DNA from: an uncultured Clostridia bacterium
GTDB taxonomy: Bacteria > Bacillota > Clostridia > Christensenellales > UBA1242
Assembly: GCA_944350115.1 (NCBI GenBank)
Contig: CALVNZ010000001.1
Coordinates: 93,378 to 157,377, forward strand
Length of the DNA: 64,000 bases
Direction: 5' to 3'
A model generated the notes under the pieces. That model made no database searches, had not been told where the DNA came from, and saw only the letters and a program-made list of their open reading frames with translations. Position numbers and translations under genes: made by a program. Shown one piece after another: positions 18,648 to 35,261 of the stretch. Position 1 is the stretch's first letter, and each line of letters starts with the position of its first letter.

Positions 18648-18675
18648 TTATCCCTTTCATTGATGATAAATTAAC

Positions 18676-18704
18676 TTGCAAATAAAAACGCAACATGATA
18701 TAAT
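18676..18704 (+). promoter_or_regulatory. Sigma-A-type promoter with extended -10, driving the repeat array and tRNA-Leu
   Basis: TTGCAA (18676-18681), 17-nt spacer, TGaTATAAT (18696-18704). Confidence 0.6.
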
Positions 18705-18792
18705 TTACTAGTTTTTGATTAAACAAATTGCGCATTAAATCCGAAGGCTATAAGCAAGATTTTAGTCAAAACAACTTCGCAAAGCAAACTCC

Positions 18793-19239
18793 TTTTATGT
18801 GGCATATTGTAAGTTTATTTTTAACAAGCGGCGCGTCAGCGACATTTGATTAAAAATAAACGAAACAACAGCGCATAAAACACAAAGCCAAAGGCTTTGA
18901 AAGCGGAGCTTTGTTGTAAGTTCATCTTCGCAAAATCAAATTAGTTTTATGTGGCATATTGCAAGTTTGTTTTTAACAAGCGGCGCGTCAGCGACATTTG
19001 ATTAAAAATAAACGAAGCAACAGCGCATAAAACACAAAGCCAAAGGCTTTGAAAGCGGAGCTTTGTTGTAAGTTCATCTTCGCAAAATCAACTTTGTTTT
19101 ATGTGGCATATTGTAAGTTTATTTTTAACAAGCGACGCGTCAGCGACATTTGATTAAAAATAAACGAAACAACAGCGCATAAAACACAAAGCCAAAGGCT
19201 TTGAAAGCGGAGCTTTGTTTTGAGCAAGCTCAAAACGTG
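18793..19239 (+). repeat. Three tandem copies (152, 152 and 143 nt) of a hairpin-forming non-coding unit, candidate structured RNA
   Basis: Units start at 18793, 18945 and 19097 and differ at only a handful of positions (three inside the hairpin between units 1 and 2, plus the tail). Each folds on paper into a ~90-nt hairpin plus the short hairpin caaagcc-aaa-ggctttg. One compensatory pair change separates units 1 and 2. Confidence 0.85.
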
Positions 19240-19245
19240 TTTTAT

Positions 19246-19328
19246 GCGGCTATGGCGGAACTGGCAGACGCGCTGGATTTAGGTTCCAGTGGGAAACCGT
19301 GGAGGTTCAAATCCTCTTAGCCGCACCA
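19246..19328 (+). tRNA. tRNA-Leu (anticodon UAG), CCA encoded
   Basis: Acceptor GCGGCTA/TAGCCGC. Anticodon arm CTGGA-TTTAGGT-TCCAG. Long variable arm. T-arm GGAGGTTCAAATCCTCT. Confidence 0.9.
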
Positions 19329-19348
19329 AAACAAAAAAAAATTTAAAA

Positions 19349-19551
19349 GCTGGATTTACTGCAAGCGAAATTTTGCAAAGCGACACGAAAGTGGCATTTA
19401 TGCAAAATAAGTGAAGCAGCATCAAGAAAACACTGGACCGAAAAGGCCAAAATGCCATGCATTTGATTTTGAAGAATTCAAAAAAGTGTTTTCGCAGATA
19501 TGTTCCAGTGGGAAACCGTGGAGGTTCAAATCCTCTTAGCCGCACCAAAAA
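19349..19551 (+). pseudogene. Partial second tRNA-Leu copy: 10-nt anticodon-stem fragment, 143-nt insert, then the 3' 46 nt including CCA
   Basis: 19349-19358 (gctggattta) equals 19272-19281. 19502-19551 equals 19283-19332 (50/50). There is no acceptor 5' strand or D-arm. Confidence 0.8.
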
Positions 19552-19583
19552 ACATTCTCCTTTTGCTTGAGAATGTTTTTTTA
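19551..19583 (+). terminator. Rho-independent terminator closing the tRNA-Leu transcription unit
   Basis: aacattctc / gagaatgtt 9-bp stem followed by a 7-T run. Confidence 0.7.
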
Positions 19584-19908
19584 TATTATTTTAAATTCGC
19601 AAATTTAAAGGTCTGAACATATCATGTTTTAGGATTTTTTATGAAAAAATTTTTTTATAGCAATCATTGTCAAAGTTTTCCTAAAGATTTAATTTTAAAA
19701 GAAAAACCATGGTGCAACAAAGAGATAATCAATGTAATAGGTCCAACTTGTCCTAGTGAAGGACCAACTGGAGCAAGTTGATACAGCCCTGCTTTCTGGG
19801 ACCACATCGGGAATTCCATATGATTCTGTAACTGATTTAGAAAATAATAATTCTTCAGCAACAGTCAGCGATCAAAGATAAAAAACGCTCCTAATGGAGC
19901 GTTTTTTG

Positions 19909-20070
19909 TTATTCGCCTTTGCGAACATAATATGAACCAGAGTGTTGTGTTGCTGGGAATCTTTCGCCTTTGTTTAAGCGAACTTCTCCCCCGCATTTAC
20001 CTTGCTCATCATAACAAGAATAAGTTGCAGTTTCTGGAGCTTGTTCTCCAGGCACAAATGATGTTTGCAT
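19909..20070 (-). CDS. YjzC-like small protein (53 aa), missed by the ORF track
   Basis: RBS gaggt lies 8 nt upstream of the ATG. Translation MQTSFVPGEQAPETATYSCYDEQGKCGGEVRLNKGERFPATQHSGSYYVRKGE fits the YjzC pattern (PGE.AP..G.Y......G......v.L.kGe.FP.t). A bidirectional terminator lies at 19878-19906. Confidence 0.6.
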   Translation of the reverse strand: MQTSFVPGEQAPETATYSCYDEQGKCGGEVRLNKGERFPATQHSGSYYVRKGE

Positions 20071-20141
20071 GTTTTTTACCTCTCAACTTTATTTTGTGCA
20101 AAACGTTTCACATTATTTATTAGTTTTGAATAAAAATCATT

Positions 20142-20933
20142 ATGACAAAATTTCAAAAAGCCTACAAATTTGCAAAAAAAAGCATTTGGAAAGATGATAC
20201 TTTAGATGAAGTCATTTTAAATTTATCAAAAACTGTTTTTAAAAACATGAAAAAAAATTGCACAAAAACCAAAAAGTTTTTTTGGCTGACAGGACAAAGC
20301 GGATCTGGTAAAACTTCTCAATTATATGAAGCGACTAAACACTTTTGCCAAAATCATAATATTAAACCTATTCATTTCGCTGTTAGAAATTTTGCAATCT
20401 ATCATCCAAAAGCAAAAGCTTTTGAAAAAAACACAAATTTTCGAGAAATTACAAATGGCTTCGCATTAAAGCTTTTAATTTGCGTATTGAATTTAGCAAT
20501 CTCTGAAGGATATGACATTGTTTTGGAAATATGCTTCCTTGACAATGTTTTTCAAAAGTTTGTTTTGGATAATTTACTAAGACAAAATTACAAATTAAGC
20601 TTGCAGATTATGGCAGTCAACAAAACACTTTCAAAATATTTTGTATATAAACGAAGTTTACGGATTCCCCGAAAAACCAATCTTTCATCTTTTAACTATT
20701 TTTACAAACATATGGGTTCAGGATTAAACTACATCTGCCGACACTATGATGTGAATTGTTGCATTTGGTCTGCATATAACAAATCCCCGATTTTTATTGG
20801 AAAAATAAAATTTGCTAAAAAAACATTTAAAAATCAAAGAAAAATATTAAAAAATTTAATTTTTGATGAAAAAACCTTATTAAAATCTAAAATTATTGTT
20901 TTGGAAGAATTATATCAGGATGATTTTTTTTAA
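20142..20933 (+). CDS. P-loop kinase, zeta-toxin/AAA_33-like
   Basis: Walker A LTGQSGSGKTSQL near residue 50. Size and layout fit zeta-type kinases. Very AT-rich. No adjacent antitoxin-like ORF was seen. Confidence 0.45.
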   Translation: MTKFQKAYKFAKKSIWKDDTLDEVILNLSKTVFKNMKKNCTKTKKFFWLTGQSGSGKTSQLYEATKHFCQNHNIKPIHFAVRNFAIYHPKAKAFEKNTNFREITNGFALKLLICVLNLAISEGYDIVLEICFLDNVFQKFVLDNLLRQNYKLSLQIMAVNKTLSKYFVYKRSLRIPRKTNLSSFNYFYKHMGSGLNYICRHYDVNCCIWSAYNKSPIFIGKIKFAKKTFKNQRKILKNLIFDEKTLLKSKIIVLEELYQDDFF

Positions 20934-21705
20934 TATAACAAATATATTTTTTCTCTATGTATTTCCACATGAAAATTAAATTATTTAATTCTTTTTTATT
21001 TATTTTTTTATTGAATTTTTTTTCATAAGAATTTAATAAATAATTTTTATAGCTTTTGTCCAATCTCCCTACAAGTCTTGCGATGTCATTCGTCGGAGAA
21101 GAATAACTTGCAAAGGCAAAATCTAAAATAGCATAAAGTTTCCCTTTTCTAATTAAAATGTTGCCTGGGTTTAAGTCACCATGTGTTAAAACCACTTTTT
21201 CTTTTTTTTCGATTTCGTTTAAACATTTATGTTTGCTTAAATCATAATTAACTCCGCTAACTTTTGACAAGCCTTTCAAAAATTTGGAAGATTTTAAAAG
21301 TTTCGTTGGATAATTCAGAACACTTAAATGTTTTACAAAATCACAAATGTCTTCTGCAAGCTTTTTCTTTTTTCTTTCGCTTAACTTGCATTCGTTTAGC
21401 GGTCTGCCTTTGATTTGATCATGCACAGAAAAAGGCTTGCCGTTTTCATACAATAATTTCATATTCGGCGTTTTTATTTTTAAGTTTTGTGTTTTCAAAA
21501 AATCACAAAAATTTTTTTCTTTTATCAAAGCTTGCCTAAAAAAATCATTTCTAGGAAATCTATAAATTAATTTTTTGTGGGCAGTCTTAACCAAAAAAAC
21601 AAAATTAGTCCATCCAGTTTTTATAGGTTCAATTTTTTTTATATGTTTAACCGACTTGTTGATTATTTTTACAAAATCATCTTCTCTAACAAAAAATTTT
21701 CTCAT
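20893..21705 (-). CDS. Aminoglycoside/choline-kinase-type phosphotransferase (APH family)
   Basis: Brenner motif HGDLNPGNIL and the ILDFAFASY (DFG-like) block. It starts 21 nt downstream of glmS on the same strand. Confidence 0.7.
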   Translation of the reverse strand: MRKFFVREDDFVKIINKSVKHIKKIEPIKTGWTNFVFLVKTAHKKLIYRFPRNDFFRQALIKEKNFCDFLKTQNLKIKTPNMKLLYENGKPFSVHDQIKGRPLNECKLSERKKKKLAEDICDFVKHLSVLNYPTKLLKSSKFLKGLSKVSGVNYDLSKHKCLNEIEKKEKVVLTHGDLNPGNILIRKGKLYAILDFAFASYSSPTNDIARLVGRLDKSYKNYLLNSYEKKFNKKINKKELNNLIFMWKYIEKKYICYIKKNHPDIILPKQ

Positions 21706-21726
21706 AAAACTTATTTATGAAATTAG

Positions 21727-23490
21727 TTATTCAACTGTCACTGCCTTCGCAAGATTTCGAGGCATATCGGGATTGTTTCCTTTCATAACTGCAACATTAT
21801 AAGCTAAAAGCTGTAAAGGAATGGTTGTGAGCACACAAATCAAATCCTTGTCGACGTTAGGTAAGCTTAAACACATTTCAAACTTTTCTATATTAACAAG
21901 ATGTGGCGGTAAAGCTGTGATTAAATATAGCTTTGCTCCCCTAGCTTTTGCTTCAAAAGCGCTGTTCATGGTTTTTTCAATAATTTTTTTGTCCGTCGCG
22001 ATAACAATAACTGGAGTTTCTTTTTCTATTAAGGTTAAAACCCCATGTTTTAACTCACCCGCAGCAAACGCGTTACAGTTAATATAACTTATTTCTTTTA
22101 ATTTTAACGCGCCTTCAAGAGCTGTAACATAATCTGCTCCTCTACCTATAAAAAAGATGCTGTTTTCGCCAGCAATATCAAATGCAAATTTTCCTAAATT
22201 GACATAAAATCTTTCTAAAATATTCGAAAGTCTTTTAATTTTTTTTAAAGCTTTATCAAATCTTTTTTCTGTGAATGCATTTGCTAGTAAATATAGCGCT
22301 GCAACTTGACAACAATAAGCTTTCGTCGACGCCACTGCGATTTCAGGCCCTGCACTTATTGGCAATGTAATAGATGAAATAGACGCCAAAGTCGAATGTG
22401 CAACATTTGTGAGAGAAATTATTTTTTTTGTAAACTTTTTGGCTTTTTCTGCGGCAGCAATTGTATCTGCAGTTTCTCCACTTTGGCTAACAAAAATGCA
22501 AAGCGTTGTGCTGTCAAGTATTTCATAATCATATCTAAATTCGCTTGCAGTAATGGCTTCGGCATCAATTTTTAAAAATTTTTTAAAAAATCTAGCGCCC
22601 ATTAAACATGAATGAAACGCGGTTCCACAGCCAATCAATTTGACTTTGTTTATCCACCATTTTTTAATCTTTGAAAAATCGTAATCTTTTAAATTCGTAT
22701 AAAGATTTTGCAGCGCTTCTGGCGTTTCATAAATTTCTTTAAGCATAAAGTGCTCATAACCATTTTTTGAAACATCTTGCATAACTGCCATGTTTGTTAT
22801 AGGCTGTTTTATTATTTTTTCTCCTTTTATATTGTAAAAAATTACTTCTGATTGCGACACTTGTGCAAATTCTAAATCTTCCATTTTGTAATATTCACCC
22901 TCAGGAAAACATATCGGATCACTTGCTACAATCGATGTATTATCTTTGCAATAAATATAAAGTGGGCTTTTGTTTTTTGCAATAAATATGCTTCTTTCTT
23001 TGTCATTTTTCATCGCGCAAAACGCATAACTTCCTTTAAGTTTTTTTGTTGCCCAAATTAGATTTTCAACATCGTTTTTAAAATTTTTTAACGACAAAAG
23101 CGATGCAATAACTTCTGAATCAGTTTCCGTTTTAAATACATGCCCTTCTTTCACCAAATTATCTTTAAGTTCTTCGAAATTTTCTATAATACCATTGTGA
23201 ACTATTGCCCATTCACCATTTAAACTAGTAATTGGATGTGCGTTTTTTTCTGAAACTTCTCCATGCGTCGCCCACCTAGTATGGCCAATCGCAACATAAG
23301 CATCTTTTATTTCCGGACTTTTTTTTATTAGAGAGTCAATTGTTCCTTTTGTTTTGTAAGTATGTAGACCTTTGTCATTTTTTAAGCATATACCAGCTGA
23401 ATCATAGCCTCTGTATTGCAACTTTTTTAAACCCTCAAAAACGATTTTTTGACAATCCTTTGAATCAATTACCCCAACAATGCCACACAT
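21727..23490 (-). CDS. glmS: Glutamine--fructose-6-phosphate aminotransferase
   Basis: N-terminal MCGIVG nucleophile. Two SIS domains (SQSGETADT). C-terminal PRNLAKAVTVE. Confidence 0.95.
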   Translation of the reverse strand: MCGIVGVIDSKDCQKIVFEGLKKLQYRGYDSAGICLKNDKGLHTYKTKGTIDSLIKKSPEIKDAYVAIGHTRWATHGEVSEKNAHPITSLNGEWAIVHNGIIENFEELKDNLVKEGHVFKTETDSEVIASLLSLKNFKNDVENLIWATKKLKGSYAFCAMKNDKERSIFIAKNKSPLYIYCKDNTSIVASDPICFPEGEYYKMEDLEFAQVSQSEVIFYNIKGEKIIKQPITNMAVMQDVSKNGYEHFMLKEIYETPEALQNLYTNLKDYDFSKIKKWWINKVKLIGCGTAFHSCLMGARFFKKFLKIDAEAITASEFRYDYEILDSTTLCIFVSQSGETADTIAAAEKAKKFTKKIISLTNVAHSTLASISSITLPISAGPEIAVASTKAYCCQVAALYLLANAFTEKRFDKALKKIKRLSNILERFYVNLGKFAFDIAGENSIFFIGRGADYVTALEGALKLKEISYINCNAFAAGELKHGVLTLIEKETPVIVIATDKKIIEKTMNSAFEAKARGAKLYLITALPPHLVNIEKFEMCLSLPNVDKDLICVLTTIPLQLLAYNVAVMKGNNPDMPRNLAKAVTVE

Positions 23491-23647
23491 AAATTTAGAC
23501 TCCTTTCTAGTTCCATTTGTATGTTTAAAAATTTTATTTCGTGAATTTTTTCAAAAAAATTTAATAAAGTTTTGCTCTATATTAATTTGTAAAATTATTT
23601 GTTTTTTTTAATAAATTTTATTATACTTTAATTAGGGAGAGTGCTTT

Positions 23648-24271
23648 ATGAAAATATTAAAAATTGAAGCTCTTAATGATTTAAAAAAATTGCATGAAGC
23701 TTTTAACTTTTTTAAAGCATCTTTTTTTAACACCATTCAAACAGAAACTATTGCATTTTTGCCATTAAGCGATATTTATGATGCAATGGTTGAAAATTTG
23801 AAAAACAAACGAAAACTACAATTTTATGCAACATATGAAAATCAAGTTATTGGTTGCGTTATTGCGCAACCAATAAAAGGTGAAAAAGGCGCTTTGTTTA
23901 TGCCAATACTCGCAATCAGTCAAGATTATCGCGGTGGAGGAATTGCATCAAAACTTTTAGAACATCTTGAAGAGCAAGCTTCTAAACAAGGGTATTTTAG
24001 AATTAAAATGAACAGCACCCAAACCTCGTTAAATTTTATAAAGAAAAACAAATTTAAGCCGTACTTATATTTAGAAGTTGGTGCTCCCTACACACTTGAA
24101 GACGTTACAAATGCTGTCAATGATGATTACATTTTAATTGAAAAAAGTGTTGGCAAAACAATAAAAACAAAATACCTTGTTCCTTTTAACTTTGATGAAA
24201 AAGACTTGACACCTTTAAAGAAAAAATTTAAAAATCTCAACTATAAAATTTTGTTTGAAAAAAGATTTTAA
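23648..24271 (+). CDS. GNAT-family N-acetyltransferase
   Basis: Motif A QDYRGGGIASKLLEHLEEQA (Q/R-x-x-G-x-G/A). Confidence 0.65.
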   Translation: MKILKIEALNDLKKLHEAFNFFKASFFNTIQTETIAFLPLSDIYDAMVENLKNKRKLQFYATYENQVIGCVIAQPIKGEKGALFMPILAISQDYRGGGIASKLLEHLEEQASKQGYFRIKMNSTQTSLNFIKKNKFKPYLYLEVGAPYTLEDVTNAVNDDYILIEKSVGKTIKTKYLVPFNFDEKDLTPLKKKFKNLNYKILFEKRF

Positions 24272-24349
24272 CCTTTGCTTTTGTAAAGGTTTTTTTAAAC
24301 GCATAAAAGCTTTGGTTTTACTCACAATAGACTCAAGGAGAAAACTTTT

Positions 24350-25075
24350 ATGCCAAATAAAAACAATAAAACTTTTATTTTTGATGAATACAATCTGAAA
24401 ACAAAAACAAAAGGAAAATGGTTTGATCTCGTCCTTGCAAACATGCTTGCTTTGGCATTCACAGCACTTGGATTTTTTACGCCTTTATTAAGCTTAGCTC
24501 TTGCATTTGTTGTGATGTCTTATATGCAAATAGCAGTTTATTACTATGTTTTAAATTCATACAGAGAAATAGAAGTTGATTTTTCTAACATTTCCCCGCC
24601 TTTTAAGAGTGTGCTTAAAATTTTGTGCATTAAAATAATCGCTCTTTCGGGCATGTTTTTATGGGGTTTATTATTAATTGTGCCAGGCGTCATTTATGGT
24701 CTTAATTGTGCTTACGCAGGATTAATATTTATTGATGATCCAAAACTTACAATAAAACAAATTTTCGCAAAATCAAAAGAGTTGGTTGTTGGAAAAAGAA
24801 TTATGATTTTACTTGTAGCTTTAATAGGCTTGATTATAATTTGTGCGGCCGCTTCCATCGGTGTTGGCATAAATTTTCTTTTTAATTTGGCATTTACTGT
24901 TCCGACAGCTTTGACGGCTGTTTTGATAATTTTACCAATTATAATAGCCTTTATTACAGCGTCAGCTCCACTTTTTCAATTTTATTTGGTTGCAACTTAT
25001 GATCAATCTCAAAATAAAAGCTTAATTCAAAAAAAATCTAAAAACGTTTCAAAATCAAAAAAAGATGTGATATAA
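24350..25075 (+). CDS. DUF975-like polytopic membrane protein
   Basis: Short cytosolic N-terminus with a K.KGKW motif followed by 5-6 TM helices, then a Lys-rich tail. Confidence 0.45.
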   Translation: MPNKNNKTFIFDEYNLKTKTKGKWFDLVLANMLALAFTALGFFTPLLSLALAFVVMSYMQIAVYYYVLNSYREIEVDFSNISPPFKSVLKILCIKIIALSGMFLWGLLLIVPGVIYGLNCAYAGLIFIDDPKLTIKQIFAKSKELVVGKRIMILLVALIGLIIICAAASIGVGINFLFNLAFTVPTALTAVLIILPIIIAFITASAPLFQFYLVATYDQSQNKSLIQKKSKNVSKSKKDVI

Positions 25076-25101
25076 TCTTCTTATAAAAAAGGAGAAAAAC
25101 T

Positions 25102-28378: not shown

Positions 28379-28388
28379 AAACAAGTAA

Positions 28389-28595: not shown

Positions 28596-28670
28596 GCTCT
28601 CGTGGTGTAATGGATAGCACAATGGTCTTCGGAACCATTAGTTCGGGTTCGAGTCCTGACGGGAGCACCA
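28596..28670 (+). tRNA. tRNA-Arg (anticodon UCG), CCA encoded
   Basis: Acceptor GCTCTCG/CGGGAGC. Anticodon arm ATGGT-CTTCGGA-ACCAT. T-arm TCGGGTTCGAGTCCTGA. Confidence 0.85.
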
Positions 28671-28718
28671 AATATTGTAACGAAAATTATTGGCTAAAAC
28701 AGAGAAAGGCGCTTGAAC

Positions 28719-28749
28719 AAAAAACATGCTTACACAGCATGTTTTTTTA
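28719..28749 (+). terminator. Rho-independent terminator
   Basis: acatgct-tacac-agcatgt stem-loop followed by a 7-T run. Confidence 0.65.
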
Positions 28750-28777
28750 AATATATGATTTTTTACACAGTTTTTTC

Positions 28778-29377
28778 TTATTTTTGAAGCTTTTTTAAGA
28801 AATTATTTAACTTTTTTCGATGTTTAAATTGATAAAGATGACTTTGTTTCAAAACCTTGAAAAGGTAACTGGCTTTGTTTTTATGCTTTGGCAAATCTCT
28901 TTTAAGTCGATTTCTTAACGATTGAAAGCTTGATGTGCCTTTCACTATGATTGGTAAATTTTTTACTACTTCAAAATCGATGAGCGTGAAAATTTGCAAC
29001 CCTTCAACAATATAGGTTCGGCTTTTGTCACATGAATCTAAAAATGATTGCAAAAACATGTTGATGTATTTTTGTAAAAGTTCGTGCTCATCTTCATTTT
29101 TGACATCATTCCATTTGTTTTCAACATATGGCACTATTTCTGGATTCGCCCTCAAAAACTCGTCCAACAACGGCTTAAACTCTTGCGAAACATGTTTGGA
29201 GTGAATCAGCCATTCCGGTTGAAAAATGCTGGCGCCGCAACTTCCGGCAAGTTCTTTCGCCGTCCAACTCTTTCCGCTGCCAGACAATCCCGTGACAAAA
29301 AGTATTTTGCTTTCACTAGGAAATTTTTCAAAATTGATTTTTATGTCATCAACATTTTTAAAGCGGTTGATTTTCAT
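28778..29377 (-). CDS. P-loop NTPase/kinase-like protein (unknown substrate)
   Basis: Walker A GLSGSGKSWT. Its ATG at 29377 overlaps the dfx stop (ATGA), indicating translational coupling. Confidence 0.55.
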   Translation of the reverse strand: MKINRFKNVDDIKINFEKFPSESKILFVTGLSGSGKSWTAKELAGSCGASIFQPEWLIHSKHVSQEFKPLLDEFLRANPEIVPYVENKWNDVKNEDEHELLQKYINMFLQSFLDSCDKSRTYIVEGLQIFTLIDFEVVKNLPIIVKGTSSFQSLRNRLKRDLPKHKNKASYLFKVLKQSHLYQFKHRKKLNNFLKKLQK

Positions 29378-29748
29378 TTCCACAATCCATGCAAGTTGCA
29401 GTAAGCATACACGCTTTTCACGCTTTCGCCCCCTAAAAGCATGAAGCTTGCCTGTGGAGCGTCAGTTGGAGCTAAATACTTGCCTGAAAAGCCATTGTTT
29501 GTCTCCAAAACGATCATTGTTATGTAATGTTCTTTGCTCATAGGGTGAAGCACACTTCCCACTTGGACATCAACCCTTTCGCCTTCAATTTTGACAACCG
29601 GTTTATGTTTCTCACTGGCGGCATCAACAGTGTTTGGCTCGATCTTTTGCATTGGAGCCCCGCAGCAAAAAACAGGAACACCCGAGTCGTGAAGTTTGAC
29701 ACAGATGTTTCCGCATACATTGCATCTGAAAAATTCTAACTTTTTCAT
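29374..29748 (-). CDS. dfx: Desulfoferrodoxin (2Fe superoxide reductase)
   Basis: N-terminal desulforedoxin CxxC...CC (CNVCGNICVKL..VFCCGAPM). Center II residues (H..H, C..H: YAYCNLHGLW). Confidence 0.9.
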   Translation of the reverse strand: MKKLEFFRCNVCGNICVKLHDSGVPVFCCGAPMQKIEPNTVDAASEKHKPVVKIEGERVDVQVGSVLHPMSKEHYITMIVLETNNGFSGKYLAPTDAPQASFMLLGGESVKSVYAYCNLHGLWK

Positions 29749-29760
29749 AGGCCTCTCCTT

Positions 29761-30369
29761 TTACTTTTTAAAGCACTTTTTTATAAACTCTTTTTGATCT
29801 TGAATACACTTTCCTTCAAGCTTGTTAGCCTCTTCTATTGTCATCTCGCTCCAATATTTTTGCTTTTCCTTGCTGTAATCGAGCGATCGCAATGGCAAGC
29901 CTTTTATAACCGTCTTGCTTGGCTTGGCGACCATATAACGATAGCTTCTGAATTCAGCTGTGTGATACTTGCCATCAAAATCGCAAGTGACAAGCGCAAT
30001 TTTGAAATAAGAATCACTTTCGCCACCAACCTCTTCGAGCTTTTTAGAAAAAATCTTGATGGTTTCTTCGTCGGAAAGCTCGTTTCCGCCATATCTATGC
30101 ACGAACACTCCCGGTTGATCTTCTGGCTTTAATCTTTCGATCAACAGCCCGCTGTCGTTTGCGATCACCGGCAAACCAGTGGCTTCGTGATAGGCTTTGG
30201 CCTTTAAAAGCGCATTTTCAAGTTCAGTTGCGCCGGTCTCCTCCACCTGGACATCTAAATGCATATCTCGCAAAGTGACATATTCAAGGCCCAATTCGTC
30301 CAGCACTTGCGAGTATATGGCAATTTTGCCGGCATTAGATGTTGCGATCAAAATCTTCTTTTGTTGCAT
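29761..30369 (-). CDS. Ham1/RdgB-like non-canonical purine NTP pyrophosphatase
   Basis: ILIATSNAGKI at the N-terminus, E..GAT..ENALLKA, and IANDSGLLIE, matching Ham1 family blocks. Confidence 0.6.
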   Translation of the reverse strand: MQQKKILIATSNAGKIAIYSQVLDELGLEYVTLRDMHLDVQVEETGATELENALLKAKAYHEATGLPVIANDSGLLIERLKPEDQPGVFVHRYGGNELSDEETIKIFSKKLEEVGGESDSYFKIALVTCDFDGKYHTAEFRSYRYMVAKPSKTVIKGLPLRSLDYSKEKQKYWSEMTIEEANKLEGKCIQDQKEFIKKCFKK

Positions 30370-30508
30370 ATTTCCCTCCTCCTATACATTCTTAGATTAT
30401 CATTTTAAAACTTATTTGATAAAAAAACAAGCAATTAAAAAACAAAACTCCATTTGCTTGGTCGTTTTTTAAAAAGGTGCTATAATTAAAACAAGGAGGA
30501 AAAGTGCC

Positions 30509-30739
30509 ATGGCTAAAACAAAAGCAAGAAAAGACTATTTTGGAATGGGCAGAATCGTCAGCATCATTCTCGCCATTTTCCCAATTACCGCTTGGCTTTT
30601 AGGTTGTATCACAAGGTTTAAAGAAGGCAAAATTGTGGCAGGGATCATACGAATCTTTTTTGGTTTCAATATTCTTTGGATTGTTGACTTAATCGTAATG
30701 ATTGTTAAAGGAAGAATCTGCCGTCTTATTAATTTTTAA
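30509..30739 (+). CDS. Small two-TM membrane protein
   Basis: RBS aaggagg. Two hydrophobic helices. No assignable family. Confidence 0.5.
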   Translation: MAKTKARKDYFGMGRIVSIILAIFPITAWLLGCITRFKEGKIVAGIIRIFFGFNILWIVDLIVMIVKGRICRLINF

Positions 30740-30762
30740 AAATTTTTTACTTGAAGGATTTT

Positions 30763-31539
30763 ATGCAACAAGAACAAATCTCTAAATTTTTGAAACTCTT
30801 GCGCATGGCACAAGACATTGTTGTCTTGACCGGCGCAGGGGTTTCAACTCCAAGTGGATTATCCGACTTTAAAAGTTTATATAACAGCAAATCTTTATTT
30901 CAAGGTTACAAACCCATTGAAATATTGTCTAATTATTTTTTAGTTAGAAACCCAAAAATTTTCTATGATTTTGTCATGCACTATTTTTCTAAACCTTGCG
31001 AACCTAATGTTTGCCATCAGTTTGTCAAAATTCTTGAACAAACCGGAAAAAATGTTACTGTCGTTACTCAAAACATTGACGGCTTACATCAAAAGGCAGG
31101 CAGTAAAAAGGTTGTTGAATTGCATGGAAGCCTTAATGAATGGTATTGCACTGATTGCGGACAATCTCGCACTTTTGAAGAAATTAAAGATTTAAACTTA
31201 TTTGATTGCGAAAATTTTGGTTGCCACGGCTTTTTTCGTCCGGACGTGGTGTTGTATGGAGAAGAAATTAAAAAGAATGCGTTAAATGATGCATTGAGAT
31301 CTTTTTCGAATGCAGACACATTGATTGTAATGGGCACAAGTTTAAAAACCTCTTTGCCATTTGAATTAATTAAAAATGTTTTTAGAGGCTATACGATTAT
31401 TTCTATGGACAAAGATTTTGTTGATTTCCCACAGCATCAAAGCCCAAAAATGAGAATTCAAGAACCTTTAGAAAAAGCTTGTAAACAACTAAATTTTGCG
31501 ATAAAAAAAGAATATGCAACACATGAAAAACAAACTTAA
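30763..31539 (+). CDS. cobB: NAD-dependent protein deacylase (sirtuin, CobB-type)
   Basis: GAGVSTPSGLSDF, QNIDGLHQKAG, ELHG, and Zn ribbon CTDCG...C..C. ATG at 30763 after gaagga is preferred over the track's TTG at 30751. Confidence 0.85.
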   Translation: MQQEQISKFLKLLRMAQDIVVLTGAGVSTPSGLSDFKSLYNSKSLFQGYKPIEILSNYFLVRNPKIFYDFVMHYFSKPCEPNVCHQFVKILEQTGKNVTVVTQNIDGLHQKAGSKKVVELHGSLNEWYCTDCGQSRTFEEIKDLNLFDCENFGCHGFFRPDVVLYGEEIKKNALNDALRSFSNADTLIVMGTSLKTSLPFELIKNVFRGYTIISMDKDFVDFPQHQSPKMRIQEPLEKACKQLNFAIKKEYATHEKQT

Positions 31540-32251
31540 AAATTGTTGGGACAAAATTTTAGAATTTTTGTTCCCTTCTAATTTAAAATGCGTGTTTTGT
31601 GGGCGAGATGTGCCGTCCAAAGATTTTTGTTGTTGCGAAGATTGTCTTCATACTCTACCCTTTAATAATGGACAGAGATGCAAAATTTGTGATGACGAAA
31701 TTTGTGGAGATGGCAACATTTGCGACAACTGTAAATCACATCACAAAAAGTTTGACAAAGCCATTGCTTCATTTATTTATGAAGGCGATGTAAAGAAAAT
31801 TGTTTTAAAATTTAAAAATGACAATGCAAAATATTTAGCGCCACACATGGCAAAATTTATGTTTGACAGATTGAAACAAGAAACAGTTTCTTTCGATTTG
31901 ATTCTCCCTGTTCCACTTTCTGAAAAATCTTTAAATAAAAGAAAATATAATCAAGCAAGTCTATTAGCAGAAGAAATTGCAAAACTTACAAATTCTTCTT
32001 TTAACAATTGTGTACTAATTAAAGAAAAAGAAACAAAACATCAAAAAGAACTTGGATTTTTAGATCGTCAAAATAATTTACATAATGCTTTTAAAGTTGT
32101 CGACAAAAATGCAATCATAAACAAAAACATTTTGCTTGTTGATGATGTGATGACGACTGGCGCAACAGCAAATGAATGTGCAAAAACACTTAAAAAGTAC
32201 GCTAGCAAAGTTTATATTCTCACTTTTGCTAGGAACAAGTTAAGTAAATAA
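31514..32251 (+). CDS. comFC: ComF-family (ComFC) phosphoribosyltransferase-domain protein
   Basis: N-terminal Cys-rich zinc finger. PRTase loop ILLVDDVMTTGAT. Confidence 0.85.
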   Translation: MQHMKNKLKNCWDKILEFLFPSNLKCVFCGRDVPSKDFCCCEDCLHTLPFNNGQRCKICDDEICGDGNICDNCKSHHKKFDKAIASFIYEGDVKKIVLKFKNDNAKYLAPHMAKFMFDRLKQETVSFDLILPVPLSEKSLNKRKYNQASLLAEEIAKLTNSSFNNCVLIKEKETKHQKELGFLDRQNNLHNAFKVVDKNAIINKNILLVDDVMTTGATANECAKTLKKYASKVYILTFARNKLSK

Positions 32252-32281
32252 TAAAATTGCAGACTTTTTTTAACAAAACAC

Positions 32282-32311
32282 TTGACTTTATCTTTACTTT
32301 TCGAGTATAAT
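32282..32311 (+). promoter_or_regulatory. Sigma-A-type promoter for tRNA-Glu
   Basis: TTGACT (32282-32287), 18-nt spacer, TATAAT (32306-32311). Confidence 0.6.
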
Positions 32312-32333
32312 CGTAATCGTCTGCAAGACATAT

Positions 32334-32408
32334 GGCCTCATGGTCAATCGGTTAAGACGCCGCCCTTTCACGGCGGAATGAGGGGTTCGACTCCCCTTGA
32401 GGCTACCA
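32334..32408 (+). tRNA. tRNA-Glu (anticodon UUC), CCA encoded
   Basis: Close to the Bacillus tRNA-Glu layout. Anticodon arm CCGCC-CTTTCAC-GGCGG. T-arm AGGGGTTCGACTCCCCT. Confidence 0.9.
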
Positions 32409-32418
32409 GAAAGAGAAG

Positions 32419-32446
32419 GAGTTGATAGAATTCAACTCTTTTTTAT
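32419..32446 (+). terminator. Rho-independent terminator directly after tRNA-Glu
   Basis: gagttga-tagaat-tcaactc stem-loop followed by ttttttatt. Confidence 0.6.
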
Positions 32447-32538
32447 TAAAACTAAGCGGGAGAGTCGAACCCTTGGGTTCGTGGGTCTCCTGAAAATGAC
32501 TTGTCATTTTTAGGGTATGGCTCCCCTTGAGGCTACCA
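32447..32538 (+). ncRNA. Candidate structured element ending in an 18-nt duplicate of the tRNA-Glu 3' end (with CCA)
   Basis: Two hairpins: ggaga..cgaaccc-tt-gggttcg..tctcc and aaaatgac-tt-gtcatttt. Then ctccccttgaggctacca, identical to 32391-32408. Expression is untested. Confidence 0.3.
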
Positions 32539-32548
32539 TAAAAATAAA

Positions 32549-32578
32549 GCGAAGAAAATGTTTCTTCGTTTTTTTTTA
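32549..32578. terminator. Rho-independent terminator
   Basis: gcgaagaaa-atg-tttcttcg stem-loop followed by a 9-T run. It also lies 3' of the convergent DUF378 gene. Confidence 0.6.
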
Positions 32579-32629
32579 TTTAAACATATAAAAAAAGTGA
32601 AGAATTTAATCTTCACTTTTTTAATAATT

Positions 32630-32872
32630 TTATTTGTCATTTTTTTCGTTTACTTTGTATTGTCCACCAAGATCAAGAATTCCGCGAGAAATGATTGGTG
32701 AAATGATAAGCCAAATTGTAGCAAGCAAGATTACAATATAAATTATGATTGACCCAGCATTTCTTCCGCCACACATCCAACTTACAAGGTCAAAATTGAA
32801 AATACCAACAAGTCCCCAGTTTAATCCACCTATTAAAGTCAAAATGTAGGCGATATAGTTTGCTATAACCAT
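32630..32872 (-). CDS. DUF378-family small membrane protein
   Basis: ATG at 32872 lies after RBS gggaggg; the track's 100-aa version is an upstream extension. The GGLNWGLVGIFNFDLV motif is the DUF378 hallmark. Confidence 0.8.
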   Translation of the reverse strand: MVIANYIAYILTLIGGLNWGLVGIFNFDLVSWMCGGRNAGSIIIYIVILLATIWLIISPIISRGILDLGGQYKVNEKNDK

Positions 32873-33004
32873 GTTTTTTCCCTCCCTATTCCATATTTTT
32901 TGCAAATCAAACAAAATTATTCTCAATGTCATTGTTTTGATTTTTTTACAATTTGATTTTTATTTTCAAATAAAAGTGATATACTGAAATCAAGTGAGGT
33001 GCAA

Positions 33005-34207
33005 ATGAAAACAATTCTATTTGAAGGAAAAATTTCAAAAGTTGCAATAATAAAAATTTTATCATTTTTTTCAAAAAAAGCTTATCACAGCAAACTTTCC
33101 CCCGTCGTTTATAAAGAATATCCTGACCCAAAACTTCCAGCGGAAAACTGGGTTAGAGTCAAAAATATTCAAACAGGAATTTGCGGTTCTGACATGACTT
33201 TTTATCGTTGTGCACAAGGCCCTAGCACCGCTTTTTTGCCTATGCCTTGTTCAGATGTTACTTATTTAGGCCATGAAACCGTTGGTGAAATCATCGAAGT
33301 AGGCAAAGAAGTAAAAAAATTTAAAGTTGGCGACAGGGTTTGCATGAGAAAATATTTGTCTAGTTGTGAACTTAAAGGTTACAAAGAAGAAGAATTTTGT
33401 GATATGTGCAAAATTGGAAACTACTCTGATTGCGAAAATTATGGCGAGCCTAGTAAAATTAATGTGCCAACAGGTGCAGGAATGGGCGACACTTACATCG
33501 CGCCTGAAGGTCAAGTTATGTCTGTTGATGGATTAACCGACGATGAAGCACTTTTAATTGAACCTTTTGCAGTTTCGTTGCACGCTGTTTTAAAACATGT
33601 GCCAAAACCAAATGACAAAGTTTTAGTAATTGGCGCTGGAATGATTGGCTTAAATGTCATTCAATTTGTAAAACTTTTACAACCAAAATGCCAAATTTAT
33701 GTTATGGAAAACAATCCAAACAAACATGCTTTTGCAAAAAAATTGGGCGCTGATCAAATTTTAATTGGAGACCCTTACAAAGCTGTTGCAAACGCAACGA
33801 ATGCAAAACTTTATCAATCTGGAAAAAACAAAATGCTTATGGGTGGGTTTGATGTTATTTTCGATTGTGTTGGAAAAGGAACGCTATTTAACGACACTTT
33901 GCGCTGGCTCAAAGCTCAAGGAACGCTTGTTAAAGTCGGTTATCAGATGACAAAAACTAAATTTGATGAAACTCCAATTTGGTGGCAAGGGCTTCAAATA
34001 ATTGGGGCTGATTCTCATGGTCTTGAAATAGTCAACGGCAAGCCAATGCAAACATTTGATCTAATAAAAGACATGATGTTGAAAAAAGAAATAATTACCG
34101 ATGGCTTCATAACCCACCGCTTCCCTCTCGACGATTACAAAAAGGCTTTCAAACTTTTAATTGAAAATCCAAGAGATACAATAAAAGTTGTGCTCGAATG
34201 CGACTGA
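33005..34207 (+). CDS. Zinc-dependent medium-chain alcohol/polyol dehydrogenase family protein
   Basis: GICGSD, GHETVGEI and Rossmann GAGMIGL motifs. ATG at 33005 lies after the gtgagg RBS. Confidence 0.8.
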   Translation: MKTILFEGKISKVAIIKILSFFSKKAYHSKLSPVVYKEYPDPKLPAENWVRVKNIQTGICGSDMTFYRCAQGPSTAFLPMPCSDVTYLGHETVGEIIEVGKEVKKFKVGDRVCMRKYLSSCELKGYKEEEFCDMCKIGNYSDCENYGEPSKINVPTGAGMGDTYIAPEGQVMSVDGLTDDEALLIEPFAVSLHAVLKHVPKPNDKVLVIGAGMIGLNVIQFVKLLQPKCQIYVMENNPNKHAFAKKLGADQILIGDPYKAVANATNAKLYQSGKNKMLMGGFDVIFDCVGKGTLFNDTLRWLKAQGTLVKVGYQMTKTKFDETPIWWQGLQIIGADSHGLEIVNGKPMQTFDLIKDMMLKKEIITDGFITHRFPLDDYKKAFKLLIENPRDTIKVVLECD

Positions 34208-34425
34208 CCTTCTATTGACTTCCTAGTATATTATTAATTAGCAAAATTCAAAAGTAAAAAAACTTCACTAAAATTAAAGAGCACAACAAAGTTTAAATTA
34301 TTTTGATTTATGTTTTGCCATCCTCCAAATTATAATTTTTAATTTTGTTAATTAGATTTTTATCTAAAAAACACCTTAATTTTAAGGTGTTTTTATTTAT
34401 ATTCTATCACTGCCCAAGTTTTGAG

Positions 34426-35139
34426 TTACTTTATACCACGACACAAATTTGGGTCTTTTGTTTCATTTGAAGTATCATTAACATTTTCACTAAACAATTT
34501 TTCTTCAGCAAGTTTAAAAAATTGTGAAAAATCTGCTATGCAATCTTTTTTAGACGCTCTTGTCCTTGCAATATCTAAAACTGTTTGTTCTTCATTCGTT
34601 TTAATTGTTAAAAGGTCTGGATTTATCTCTAACGCTTTGATTAGAACTTCAGAAAGGTCTTCTTCTGCTGCTGTATGCAAGATGGTTTCGCCGTTCCAAT
34701 TTTTCTCTTTCGCAAGTTCTGGATCAACTTCTAATGCTTCAATTAACACTTCGAACAGGCCTTGCCGTGCAGCTATGTGCAAGAAGGTTTTGCCATCTTC
34801 ATCTTTCTCTCTTGCAAGTTCTGGATCAACTTCTAATGCTTTTATTAACACATCAGAAAAACCTTCCCATGCAACATCATGCAAGAAGGTTTCTCCCCGG
34901 ATATTTTTCTCTCTTGCAAGATTTTTATATTTTTCTACTACCAAACACAAAAAGGCTGTCATGCCGTTTGAAATCGCCAGATCAATCAATGTTTCCCCAT
35001 CACAAGATTTCATTTTTAGCAATTCTTCATCTTTACTACCTTTTGCATCCAACTCTGAAAAATAGTTGATTAAGTATTTCTCTGCTTTTTCGTCGTCTCC
35101 GTCAATTAACTTTTTAGTTTTATCAACAAAGTTTTCCAT
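34426..35139 (-). CDS. Ankyrin-repeat protein (about 5 ANK repeats, no signal peptide)
   Basis: Repeated G(E/K)T(F/I)LH.AA..G...V(L)I.AL motifs, each preceded by PELA(R/K)EK(D/N)..G. Good RBS aaaggag. Confidence 0.85.
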   Translation of the reverse strand: MENFVDKTKKLIDGDDEKAEKYLINYFSELDAKGSKDEELLKMKSCDGETLIDLAISNGMTAFLCLVVEKYKNLAREKNIRGETFLHDVAWEGFSDVLIKALEVDPELAREKDEDGKTFLHIAARQGLFEVLIEALEVDPELAKEKNWNGETILHTAAEEDLSEVLIKALEINPDLLTIKTNEEQTVLDIARTRASKKDCIADFSQFFKLAEEKLFSENVNDTSNETKDPNLCRGIK

Positions 35140-35240
35140 ATCTCACTCCTTTGATAGTCACACTATATCATAGCTTTACGCCATTGTCAATATACAAATT
35201 ATCAAAGTTTTGGTGAGTAAAATAAATAGTAACAAATTTA

Positions 35241-35261
35241 GTCGTGCTCGAATGCAATTAA
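35241..35261 (+). repeat. Relic copy of the dehydrogenase gene 3' end (VVLECN-stop)
   Basis: gtcgtgctcgaatgcaattaa matches gttgtgctcgaatgcgactga (34187-34207) at 17/21 positions. Both read V-V-L-E-C-(D/N)-stop. Confidence 0.6.

Follow-up and report, generated by a model that had tools for sequence, protein, structure and literature searches.

Displaced gene-end copies around short inserts in a chicken-gut bacterium: possible footprints of small insertion modules

Gene-end repeats and strain polymorphism at four loci

The window, a 64-kb stretch of the genome of a small bacterium from the chicken gut, contains four tRNAs identified by ARAGORN, Leu(UAG), Arg(UCG), Glu(UUC) and Ser(CGA). A sequence-only reading had proposed that the first three and a dehydrogenase gene follow the same logic, an intact gene end, a short insert and a displaced copy of that end. 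This is true of all four loci. The inserts measure 112–170 nt at the tRNA loci and 1.05 kb at the dehydrogenase gene, and the direct repeats (15 to 85 nt) invariably reach the gene end. Strains were compared through contigs from other studies (runs X5, X6, and X8). Contigs without the Leu, Glu or dehydrogenase insert exist, and at these three loci the inserts behave as insertions or deletions. The Arg insert was found in the independent assemblies X5 and X6 and the Leu insert also in X6, so neither is an assembly artefact. The Leu locus has the following features:

18781–19236, plus strand: three tandem 152-nt units immediately 5' of tRNA-Leu(UAG) (local-repeat family; copy number strain-variable)
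19246–19328, plus strand: intact tRNA-Leu(UAG) (ARAGORN, Rfam model search)
19329–19498, plus strand: Leu insert body (present in X6, absent in X8)
19499–19550, plus strand: displaced partial tRNA-Leu(UAG), anticodon through CCA plus 4 nt (repeat comparison)

The Leu 3' repeat, described earlier as 50 nt, covers 52 nt at 98% identity, 46 nt of them exact (19280–19331 versus 19499–19550), and the displaced copy carries the anticodon TAT where the tRNA has TAG. Near its start (19349–19358) the insert body contains a 10-nt direct copy of tRNA nucleotides 27–36. The body has no second match anywhere in the genome, and a search of 100 further genomes of the genus gave a single partial match, of 31 nt (G111). 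The empty site of X8 joins 19328 to 19595 via 37 other letters. Upstream, X6 joins 18831 to 19136 and skips 304 nt, leaving one unit of the 152-nt repeat, not three.

At the Arg locus, the displaced copy belongs to the 5' end of the gene:

28389–28429, plus strand: 5' partial tRNA-Arg(UCG), nucleotides 1–41 (repeat comparison across species)
28430–28537, minus strand: reverse-oriented structured module resembling the element E described below (covariance-model match, 16.9 bits)
28538–28552, plus strand: inverted copy of tRNA-Arg nucleotides 36–49, spanning the 41/42 junction and co-varying with the tRNA in other species
28596–28670, plus strand: intact tRNA-Arg(UCG) (ARAGORN, Rfam model search)

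The 5' copy is identical to the gene at 41 of 41 positions (28389–28429 versus 28596–28636), as had been noted, and stands downstream of a promoter-like TTGAAA/TATAAT (28352–28378); within it, X5 and X6 have 28399–28409 swapped for 69 other letters. The module contains a long hairpin (28435–28446 with 28489–28498) with compensatory changes over five species, and a P1-like hairpin (28505–28534). C-A mismatches of the hairpin on the plus strand are G-U pairs on the minus strand. At least five species have the insert, and the segments derived from the tRNA co-vary with the tRNA of the species concerned. The Arg module is old, conserved and vertically inherited. The earlier reading held that its claim would be refuted if all inserts proved ancient, fixed and shared with distant relatives; sharing with relatives applies to the Arg insert and not to the species-specific Leu insert. 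The same 41/42 junction is used in another genome (G054) for a 3' copy that flanks a 1.1-kb one-gene cassette.

The Glu locus is arranged as follows:

32334–32408, plus strand: intact tRNA-Glu(UUC) (ARAGORN, Rfam model search)
32409–32457, plus strand: first part of the 130-nt Glu unit, with a terminator hairpin and T-run of its own (32417–32446)
32458–32472, plus strand: inverted copy of the tRNA-Glu T-arm, nucleotides 50–60 exact (tRNA-fragment scan)
32482–32519, plus strand: P1-type hairpin, TCTCCTGAAAATG...CATTTTTAGGG (covariance model, 18.2 bits, E 0.016, top match in the window)
32513–32547, plus strand: displaced partial tRNA-Glu 3' end (18 nt exact at 32521–32538)

The 18-nt repeat proposed here is exact and lies within a 35-nt repeat of 83% identity (32383–32417 versus 32513–32547). 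The Glu unit is precisely absent from X6, where 32390 is joined to 32521, 130 nt are skipped, and the junction falls inside the 18-nt repeat. In the strain lacking the unit, the second terminator is used directly.

The fourth locus is a protein-coding gene:

32999–34207, plus strand: gene of the Zn-dependent alcohol dehydrogenase family, its last two codons (GAC TGA) supplied by the insert
34202–35240, no strand assigned: 1.05-kb cassette with one ankyrin-repeat gene (34426–35139, minus strand)
35241–35262, plus strand: displaced original dehydrogenase 3' end, GTCGTGCTCGAATGC AAT TAA (repeat and empty-allele comparison)

The dehydrogenase repeat aligns at 74% over 31 nt (34171–34201 versus 35225–35255), with a 15-nt core matching at 14 of 15 positions. 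The background for gene-end repeats was assessed with 50-nt windows from the 3' ends of 612 gene-like ORFs; downstream exact matches of at least 12 nt numbered 41 from gene 3' ends and 30 from internal control windows. As a sequence match alone, the dehydrogenase repeat is no better than this background, and the 21-nt repeat (17/21) noted earlier is a chance-level match. The 1.05-kb insert it was taken to mark is nevertheless genuine. In X6, 34201 is joined to 35261 via 38 other letters, and the gene without cassette has its original C-terminus and terminator. The second dehydrogenase copy retains the last codons and stop of this empty allele (GAATGC AAT TAA). The cassette is real because of this empty site and because the original gene end is kept in the displaced copy. 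It comes with its own promoter (TTGACA/TATAGT) and with a bidirectional terminator, and contains the ankyrin gene only, with no recombinase. A sister species (G106) has the cassette at the same locus, whereas G067, G079, G110 and X6 lack it.

The remaining tRNA of the window serves as internal control:

44803–44893, minus strand: tRNA-Ser(CGA), without partial copy (ARAGORN and tRNA-fragment scan)

Its partial-copy scan was empty, in agreement with the earlier reading. Across the whole genome, exact partial copies of 17–70 nt accompany 12 of the 42 tRNA genes at a distance of about 100–500 nt, and the high-identity non-coding local repeats lie almost all at tRNA genes. The phenomenon is larger than first described.

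A folded module at many tRNA loci

The inserts had been described as unrelated to each other, which does not hold: the Glu and Arg inserts and many others share a hairpin module. This hairpin, P1, is a CCCC-AAAAT/ATTTT-GGGG stem of 30–35 nt and was found in the tRNA-Ile fragments on contig C4 as well as at three Leu loci and the Arg and Glu loci; the sequence of the Ser(GGA) locus shows a related hairpin. Several inserts carry E, a 103-nt structured element with strong covariation, and the Arg insert is related to this family, in reverse orientation. The covariance model matches the window's Glu and Arg modules weakly (18.2 and 16.9 bits). In an alignment of 28 copies of E, 96% of cells are paired and 12 of 17 pairs have compensatory changes; none of 500 shuffles reaches the observed level, and slid controls give 33–58%. 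The frequent G-U pairs fix the active strand. Searches against Rfam 15 gave no family match for E; they returned only tRNA, rRNA and sub-threshold noise.

Within the genus, 51 of 101 genomes carry E in multiple copies, as many as 9, and contig ends are a frequent location. Across the order, 12 of 92 genera have E. In this genome, full E lies at three tRNA-Leu loci and nowhere else in the assembled contigs, with no copy adjoining rRNA; the contigs break at rRNA-linked tRNAs, where an unassembled copy may lie. Elsewhere, E directly borders position 1 of the 16S rRNA model (two species, L061 and L072) or precedes an intact tRNA by 3 nt (tRNA-Leu(CAA) in G081, tRNA-Gln in G055), all without duplication; it is also found directly after an rRNA promoter and before a boxA-like sequence. 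The RNA contigs gave zero cover on the inserts, an observation neutral for or against a host RNA role.

These positions, together with the strong and strand-specific covariation of E, favour a reading in which E and P1 serve stable-RNA operons as leaders or spacers, for instance as signals for processing or antitermination. The sense and antisense pieces derived from the tRNA would be selected for pairing with the tRNA or its precursor, as working parts and not scars. The antisense piece and 5' copy of the Arg locus, which co-vary with the tRNA across species, also fit, and the age of the Arg module and E at intact 16S and tRNA 5' ends without duplication are compatible with host RNA function. 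We nevertheless consider this reading rather unlikely. In the mirror cases (Arg here and Ser in G072) E is antisense to the tRNA, and E-sense RNA would come from the opposite tRNA strand, so a single role at the RNA level is hard to define. Moreover, the units are absent from close strains and most species, full E is restricted in the assembled contigs of this genome to the three tRNA-Leu loci, and one-gene cassettes obey the same gene-end logic.

The usual order is an intact tRNA, a short inverted copy spanning the junction, the module, and a direct copy that extends as far as the gene end. At Leu(UAA) of G085, inverted nucleotides 3–20, E and direct nucleotides 14–86 follow each other; at Gly of G080, the segments are inverted 38–49, E and direct 48–75. 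Pro of G218 has three tandem units of inverted nucleotides 22–33, E and direct nucleotides from 31 onward. The Ser locus of G072 and the Arg locus of this genome have the mirror-image layout. The layout is not universal, as the distant G143 has the inverted piece on the opposite side of E.

Besides Pro in G218, tandem arrays of varying copy number were found for the 152-nt repeat, Asn (three units), Ile (three) and Leu(UAA) (1.8). Such arrays could arise with no element at all, by tandem duplication and template switching at hairpin-forming tRNA genes (slippage, quasi-palindrome correction) and unequal crossing-over, and template switching could keep the inverted copies matched to the tRNA. 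This explanation is very unlikely in our judgement, since it accounts neither for a conserved co-varying module at unlinked loci and in distant genera nor for foreign-gene cassettes with their own promoters.

Recombinases of the genome and comparison with known systems

As the sequence-only reading had stated, the 64-kb window contains no match to any of the recombinase and transposase families tested. All recombinase matches (PF00589, PF00239) are located outside it and comprise three tyrosine recombinases (one Xer-sized, two in integrase islands arranged in tandem at tRNA-Thr) and a large serine recombinase in an island at tRNA-Ser(GCU). The genome has no IS110, reverse transcriptase, HUH Y1 or TnpB genes, and IS110 and TnpB are likewise absent from five E-rich genomes. 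The sole GIY-YIG match is a 603-aa frame, which we take to be UvrC, of a size seen in nearly all genomes of the genus; small GIY-YIG ORFs of two relatives do not adjoin tRNAs. Among the families searched, no candidate enzyme for the inserts was found.

The inserts have the gene-end direct repeat and the filled and empty sites of tRNA-targeting integrative elements, and no integrase inside. Integrase-less inserts and tRNA fragments have precedents in CIMEs, elements that have lost their integration and transfer genes and kept attL and attR (PMC5704250), and in reported tRNA fragments (PMC9897764). As in integrase islands, prophages and CIMEs, the insert has an intact gene on one side and a displaced end copy on the other, junctions fall in tRNA loops, a replacement end with terminator is supplied and units stack in tandem; CIMEs also share the missing integrase and the retained attL/attR-like repeats. 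The inserts could therefore be decayed islands, one integrase element per locus reduced by internal deletion to att-proximal DNA between attL and attR, with tandem units as accretions. The junctions in D, anticodon and T loops fit this origin. Williams reportedly described these loops in 2002 as the sublocations favoured by tRNA-targeting integrases. The replacement gene ends and terminators brought by the inserts, and the genuine islands at tRNA-Thr and tRNA-Ser(GCU), fit as well.

Several differences make decayed islands unlikely. The inserts are only 0.1–1.1 kb long and carry one folded module at many tRNAs and junction positions, an inverted target copy spans the junction, which is not a known attP feature, and 5'- and 3'-regenerating versions both occur. 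Independent deletions would not leave the same 35–103-nt folded module at the junctions of many tRNAs in 12 genera. At least 10 target sequences would need as many integrase specificities, whereas the genome has two island integrases; no helper element of matching specificity was found, the integrase islands being just at tRNA-Thr and tRNA-Ser(GCU). No larger integrase-bearing relative of any insert, including those at the Leu, Arg and Glu sites, was seen in the loci examined. Of the three explanations offered earlier, decay of large elements would thus hardly yield one conserved module. The best fit is with small elements mobilised in trans or with an unrecognised mechanism that acts at structured gene ends.

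Other mobile systems were compared and rejected. Fungal mitochondrial mORFs bring a new C-terminus to a protein gene and displace its native end downstream (PMC3630166). The dehydrogenase cassette follows this logic, but mORFs encode a LAGLIDADG or GIY-YIG endonuclease; a homing-endonuclease cassette, whether mORF-like or GIY-YIG in tRNA genes, was rejected, as the inserts contain no endonuclease ORF. REP/RAYT and IS200/IS605-derived palindromic elements are likewise small, protein-less, strand-specific multicopy hairpins, often at contig ends. To our knowledge, they do not duplicate the end of a target gene, and this type was rejected because the genome has no HUH Y1 transposase or TnpB. The IS110 bridge RNA is a guide-carrying recombination RNA whose conserved scaffold and variable flanks, matching the target on either side of the insertion point, resemble the present arrangement; here, however, the segments that match the target are found outside the scaffold, and one side has much longer ones than the other. 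An IS110-type element was rejected, since no DEDD/IS110 recombinase occurs here or in the five E-rich relatives. A MITE or IS-derived transposon would have terminal inverted repeats and a fixed-length target-site duplication, which does not agree with repeats of 15 to 85 nt that always run to the gene end. A group I intron was rejected because there is no Rfam match for an intron at E-values up to 1 and an uninterrupted tRNA is present at every locus.

A proposed insertion mechanism

We tentatively read the repeats, with slightly less than even confidence, as footprints of small non-autonomous insertion modules that regenerate gene ends, and the pattern suggests a small insertion element of a kind not yet described. 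The landing sites of such modules would be the single-stranded D, anticodon and T loop regions of stable-RNA genes and, in occasional cases, the final codons of a protein gene. The gene would stay intact because a copy of its end, from junction to terminus, is present on both sides of the insert; one copy would complete the working gene and the other would remain as the displaced partial copy. A module would consist of the P1 hairpin, in the full version E, and usually a 10–18-nt inverted target copy spanning the junction, with no cargo, a structured element or one gene, such as that of the ankyrin protein here or of a 295-aa protein without known family in another species. Modules may insert either way round with respect to the tRNA, while their polarity with respect to E stays constant, and they may duplicate in tandem. 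Gain and loss between strains probably proceed via recombination across the direct repeats.

The anatomy of the loci, their recurrence through the genome and the order, the covariation and the differences between strains are shown; we infer that the units were created by insertion and not by duplication only. Deletion between direct repeats explains the empty sites equally well, so the direction of events is not proven. The enzyme would be a trans-acting recombinase or nuclease that recognises structure and base-pairing, not one fixed sequence. At the tRNA-Leu(CAA) locus, units with differing junctions (nucleotides 17, 40 and 69–72) occur in different species. In this genome, three tRNA-Leu isoacceptors have an insert in common that is 80–89% identical, and the partial copies each match their own tRNA at 100% identity.

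Partial gene copies at tRNA genes in the window and across the genome

The window contains four tRNA genes, all confirmed by ARAGORN and Rfam. The repeats claimed by the sequence-only reading at tRNA-Leu, tRNA-Arg and tRNA-Glu are all present:

19246-19328, tRNA-Leu(UAG) (ARAGORN and Rfam)
19499-19550, 3'-part copy of tRNA-Leu(UAG), 52 nt, 170 nt downstream of the gene
28389-28429, 5' copy of tRNA-Arg(UCG), its first 41 nt, exact, upstream of the gene
28596-28670, tRNA-Arg(UCG) (ARAGORN and Rfam)
32334-32408, tRNA-Glu(UUC) (ARAGORN and Rfam)

The Leu(UAG) copy runs from the anticodon to CCA and four flanking bases with a single change (TAG to TAT), and resembles a shortened tRNA whose anticodon loop has received an insertion. 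A promoter-like TTGAAA/TATAAT lies immediately upstream of the 41-nt Arg(UCG) copy. The 3' end of tRNA-Glu(UUC) is repeated exactly over 18 nt, 112 nt downstream, within a 35-nt repeat at 83% identity. No partial copy of the fourth gene, tRNA-Ser(CGA), was found when the 42 tRNAs were matched against the genome, in agreement with the claim that it lacks such a footprint. Upstream of tRNA-Leu(UAG), at 18781-19236, lie three tandem 152-nt units, the start of each resembling the 5' flank and start of that gene. Genetic code 4 did not lengthen the ORFs, and code 11 was kept.

The genome comprises 865,569 bp in nine contigs (99% complete) and, according to run records, comes from chicken gut metagenomes. 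The same matching, a genome-wide search proposed by the sequence-only reading, showed that exact partial copies of 17-70 nt adjoin 12 of the 42 tRNAs. Upstream 5' copies accompany Thr(GGU), Arg(UCG), Arg(CCU) and Ile(GAU); downstream 3' copies accompany Leu(UAG), Leu(CAG), Leu(CAA), Leu(UAA), Glu(UUC), Asn(GUU, three copies), Ser(GGA) and Lys(CUU). The junctions, the tRNA positions at which a copy starts or stops, lie within or next to three parts of the molecule: the D loop (nt 16/17), the anticodon loop and stem (nt 35-41) and the T loop (nt 50-70). In a genome self-comparison, high-identity non-coding local repeats were nearly all at tRNA genes, the remaining high-identity local repeats lying within large repetitive coding regions. 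Several contigs start or end in tRNA partial-copy repeats.

Two further arrangements were seen outside the window. Downstream of tRNA-Val(UAC) (contig C3, 2056-2560) stand 150-nt tandem units, each with a reverse-complement tRNA 3' end (TGGTGGGAG), a partial direct copy (ATATAACTCCA) and its own terminator. A second tRNA-Ile sequence (acceptor TAGTCGCG) is present in pieces only, at L009 (C9:1-700) and L016 (C4:1-1600): the 5' halves on C9 carry an insertion of about 60 nt in the anticodon loop, the 3' halves on C4 carry a hairpin between T stem and T loop, and both contigs break inside these repeats.

tRNA genes are classic landing sites for mobile DNA, and partial tRNA copies are routinely taken as scars of large islands. 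The gene-end logic seen here is that of site-specific integration, and the genome also has ordinary islands of that kind. It encodes three tyrosine recombinases, one Xer-sized on contig C6 and two in related stacked islands beside tRNA-Thr(GGU) near the start of contig C1, and one large serine recombinase adjoining tRNA-Ser(GCU). All four lie outside the window, which had correctly been described as free of recombinases. Partial tRNAs are generally read as remnants of island decay (PMC9897764), and decayed islands that have att sites but lack an integrase are known as CIMEs (PMC5704250). Decay of this type, with att sites kept and the integrase lost, draws support here from the gene-end logic and from the ordinary islands.

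The two islands (C1:1-20400; L002, L003 and L013) have homologous left ends with repeated TAGGTGT motifs, and a diverged 3' tRNA-Thr fragment lies at C1:20090-20135. A likeness between the second Asn unit and the left end of a tRNA-Thr island consists of a terminator-like 30 nt only and is not informative.

A shared structured module and its layout

The inserts had been described as unrelated to each other. This does not hold: those of three tRNA-Leu isoacceptors (CAG, CAA, UAA) on different contigs are 80-89% identical, and a hairpin with the pattern CCCC-AAAAT(G)-loop-(C)ATTTT-GGGG, here called P1, is common to the Leu inserts, the Glu insert (32482-32519) and the Arg insert (28505-34). The 70-nt Leu partial copies (nt 17-86) are each 100% identical to their own neighbouring tRNA, not to the other loci. 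P1 also stands at T-loop positions of the tRNA-Ile fragments on C4, and the Ser(GGA) insert has a related hairpin (CCCCGCAAAAAG...TTTTTGTGGGG). A loose regular-expression scan gave many chance matches in this AT-rich genome; only the perfect matches sit at tRNA loci.

The Leu-type insert, here called E, is found in 51 of 101 genomes of the genus with up to 9 copies, often at contig ends. Its 103-nt consensus, aligned from 28 copies, consists of P1, an AAGGA linker and a long-range helix of (A/G)CAAAC with GTTTG(T)GAC, which surrounds two GAGCG motifs and a variable inner hairpin. In this fold 96% of alignment cells are paired and both sides have changed in 12 of 17 pairs; these values were reached in none of 500 shuffles, and pairing fell to 33-58% when the partners were slid. 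The many G-U pairs at two positions reveal which of the two strands is the relevant one. E matched no Rfam family and no phage record. Its covariance model finds full copies in this genome at the three Leu loci only, with weak partial matches in the window's Glu and Arg modules. In a sample of 92 genera from the whole order, it finds full-length copies in 12. A partial copy joined to the end of E was also tried as a full tRNA-like fold; it scored 27.6 bits with the tRNA model, below threshold, and acceptor pairing is impossible.

The order of parts around E and P1-only inserts is common to different tRNAs and taxa. The intact tRNA is followed by a linker of about 13-76 nt, a 10-18-nt inverted tRNA copy that spans or abuts the junction, a few bases, the module, 1-8 bases, and a direct tRNA copy from the junction to the gene end.

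Inverted and direct tRNA copies flanking the module
Leu(CAG), this genome: inverted nt 10-20; direct nt 17-86
Leu(CAA) and Leu(UAA), this genome: shorter inverted matches (10 and 8 nt) at the Leu(CAG) position, seen in the sequence
Glu, this genome: inverted nt 50-60; direct from nt 55-58
Ser(GGA), this genome: inverted nt 62-78; direct nt 70-88
Leu(UAA), related genome G085: inverted nt 3-20; direct nt 14-86; twice
Gly, related genome G080: inverted nt 38-49; direct nt 48-75
tRNA-Pro, G218 (another family of the order): three tandem units of inverted nt 22-33, E, direct nt 31 onward

The window's Arg locus and a tRNA-Ser of relative G072 are mirror images, with the module on the opposite strand; there the long copy is the tRNA 5' part and the short inverted piece lies between module and intact gene. 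The polarity is thus fixed relative to E and independent of tRNA direction, which argues for a DNA-level process over a single RNA-level role. Exceptions are Leu(UAG), whose short piece (nt 27-36, at 19349-19358) is direct, and the distant G143, whose inverted piece is on the other side of E.

These features bear on island decay. In many tRNAs, and in genera that are only distantly related, one folded module abuts the junction, whose position varies; targets far outnumber integrases; and for the inverted junction-spanning target copy we know of no counterpart in attP sites. Decay alone therefore fits poorly, and we regard it as unlikely.

Alternatively, the modules might be purely host-functional RNAs. 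The covariation of E speaks for this, as does its exact placement, in some species, at the 5' ends of 16S rRNA and intact tRNAs, but the mirror-image cases speak against it. The RNA contigs, those of X20, cover only tRNAs and a few genes and are silent on insert expression either way. A group I intron at the Arg and Leu loci was rejected, with no Rfam match and incompatible end letters: such introns usually follow an exon ending in U and themselves end in G, whereas identical flanking copies make the last letters of exon and intron equal.

Age, turnover and one-gene cassettes

Judged by its distribution, the Arg module is old. The whole arrangement is common to five species at 75-92% identity, with shorter versions in two more; about 20 other species have tRNA-Arg(UCG) alone. 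Each species' own tRNA is matched by the inverted piece and by the final 20 nt of the 5' copy, as in G047 (anticodon stem AACGU/ACGUU, inverted piece GGACGATAAACGTTCC), and the module's long hairpin shows compensatory changes between species. The Leu(UAG) insert is, on the same kind of comparison, young: its body was not found in 100 other genomes of the genus except for one 31-nt partial match, in G111. Whether the inserts are ancient and shared, a point raised earlier, is thus answered differently for each, the Arg module being both and the Leu(UAG) insert neither.

Contigs of other studies (X5, X6, X8) were aligned to window 18500-35400. Presence or absence differs at the Leu, Glu and dehydrogenase loci; the Arg insert is kept in X5 and X6, with 69 other letters within the 5' copy. 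X6 has a single 152-nt unit upstream of tRNA-Leu, against three here. In X8, position 19328 is joined to 19595 via 37 other letters, and the Leu insert and partial copy are consequently both absent. At the Glu locus X6 lacks exactly 130 nt, with the junction within the 18-nt repeat, which places the second terminator directly after its tRNA-Glu. In other species the tRNA-Leu(CAA) junction lies at nt 40 (G005) or nt 69-72 (G010, G014, G017, G021, G024), which speaks for repeated independent events. On the present comparison each locus is compatible with gain as well as with loss. Downstream of the Leu locus, strain differences fall within a stretch whose ORFs are all short: at 19738, 18 nt are inserted in X8 (AGGTCCAAC twice), and at 19776/19777 X5 and X6 have 149 extra letters.

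The fourth repeat of the sequence-only reading, which lies where a Zn-dependent alcohol dehydrogenase family gene ends, does not stand as a sequence match: its 15-nt core (14/15) within 31 nt at 74% is no better than background. The displacement it was taken to mark is seen in the empty allele of X6, where 34201 is joined to 35261 via 38 letters containing a terminator and the gene ends ...GAATGC AAT TAA before that terminator. In this genome it ends ...GAATGC GAC TGA, followed by a 1.05-kb insert, 3' of which GTCGTGCTCGAATGC AAT TAA is the displaced original end. The insert carries a single ankyrin-repeat gene on the opposite strand, together with a bidirectional terminator and a TTGACA/TATAGT promoter. 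At this locus the ankyrin gene is longer in sister species G106 and missing in G067, G079 and G110. The expected genome-wide excess of gene-3'-end repeats did not appear: among 612 gene-like ORFs, exact downstream matches of at least 12 nt numbered 41 at 3'-end windows against 30 at internal controls. Repeats alone therefore cannot reveal protein-gene cases.

The same gene-end logic is found in relative G054 (L034:1592-2704), where a 1.1-kb one-gene cassette follows tRNA-Arg(UCG) and precedes a copy of nt 42-75. The product of its gene, 295 aa long, has a hydrophobic segment at the N terminus and matches no Pfam family. The cassette uses the 41/42 junction of this genome's Arg(UCG) 5' copy. 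In fungal mitochondria, a mobile endonuclease ORF provides the gene it enters with a new C-terminal end, and the native C-terminus is displaced (PMC3630166). This is the closest described parallel to the dehydrogenase cassette, which, in contrast, carries no endonuclease. For host-functional RNAs, the age of the Arg module counts in favour; units lost in close strains and cassettes with foreign genes count against, and we find this explanation somewhat improbable.

Proposed mobile modules, candidate agents and E at rRNA loci

We tentatively favour small non-autonomous insertion modules with intrinsic polarity, moved by a putative agent acting in trans. Such modules would insert at loop positions of stable-RNA genes and be tolerated only where the gene-end copy restores the gene; tandem multiplication, then loss by recombination between repeats, would follow. 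A more specific version, which we think quite unlikely, makes E the scaffold of a nucleic-acid-guided, tRNA-loop-targeting insertion system, with two programmable guides, namely the inverted copy and the first part of the direct copy. The guides would pair with both target strands either side of the insertion point, and one trans-acting enzyme could insert a single module, facing either way, into many tRNA genes, the tRNA surviving through the copied gene end.

Among possible helpers, IS110-type recombinases, reverse transcriptases, HUH Y1 transposases and TnpB were not found in this genome, nor IS110 and TnpB in five E-rich relatives. Small GIY-YIG nuclease cassettes were likewise rejected: the sole match in this genome is a 603-aa frame, presumably UvrC, as almost all genomes of the genus have a frame of this size, and two small GIY-YIG genes of relatives are not at tRNAs.

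Literature searches found no published description of such bacterial elements. Here tRNA scars are far commoner than islands, and they enclose tiny stretches of DNA. A large part of this DNA is a conserved co-varying fold that is found, in a recurring arrangement with target-derived pieces, beside numerous tRNAs and in numerous gut Clostridia genera, which points to a protein-less element class targeting tRNA genes. Practical effects of such elements are assembly breaks at tRNA genes, tRNA-like fragments prone to mis-annotation, delivery of small cargo genes and a supply of strain markers. If target choice were guided by base pairing, the system would be of interest as a programmable insertion tool.

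E also occurs at rRNA loci in other species of the genus:

L061:1501-1606, minus strand, E
L072:1889-1991, E
L072:1501-1607, E
L073:1501-1607, E

At L061 and L072, E runs up to the very start of the Rfam 16S rRNA model; a second copy lies directly after the rRNA promoter, before a boxA-like sequence. E may also serve stable-RNA operons, as a leader or in processing. In three species (L062:1396-1815, L076 and L082) a conserved non-coding block of about 400 nt contains E, then GCCAGGAGTTTAGTACNCCTAAATGACTGG, then a second E-like unit, and may be a larger unannotated RNA.
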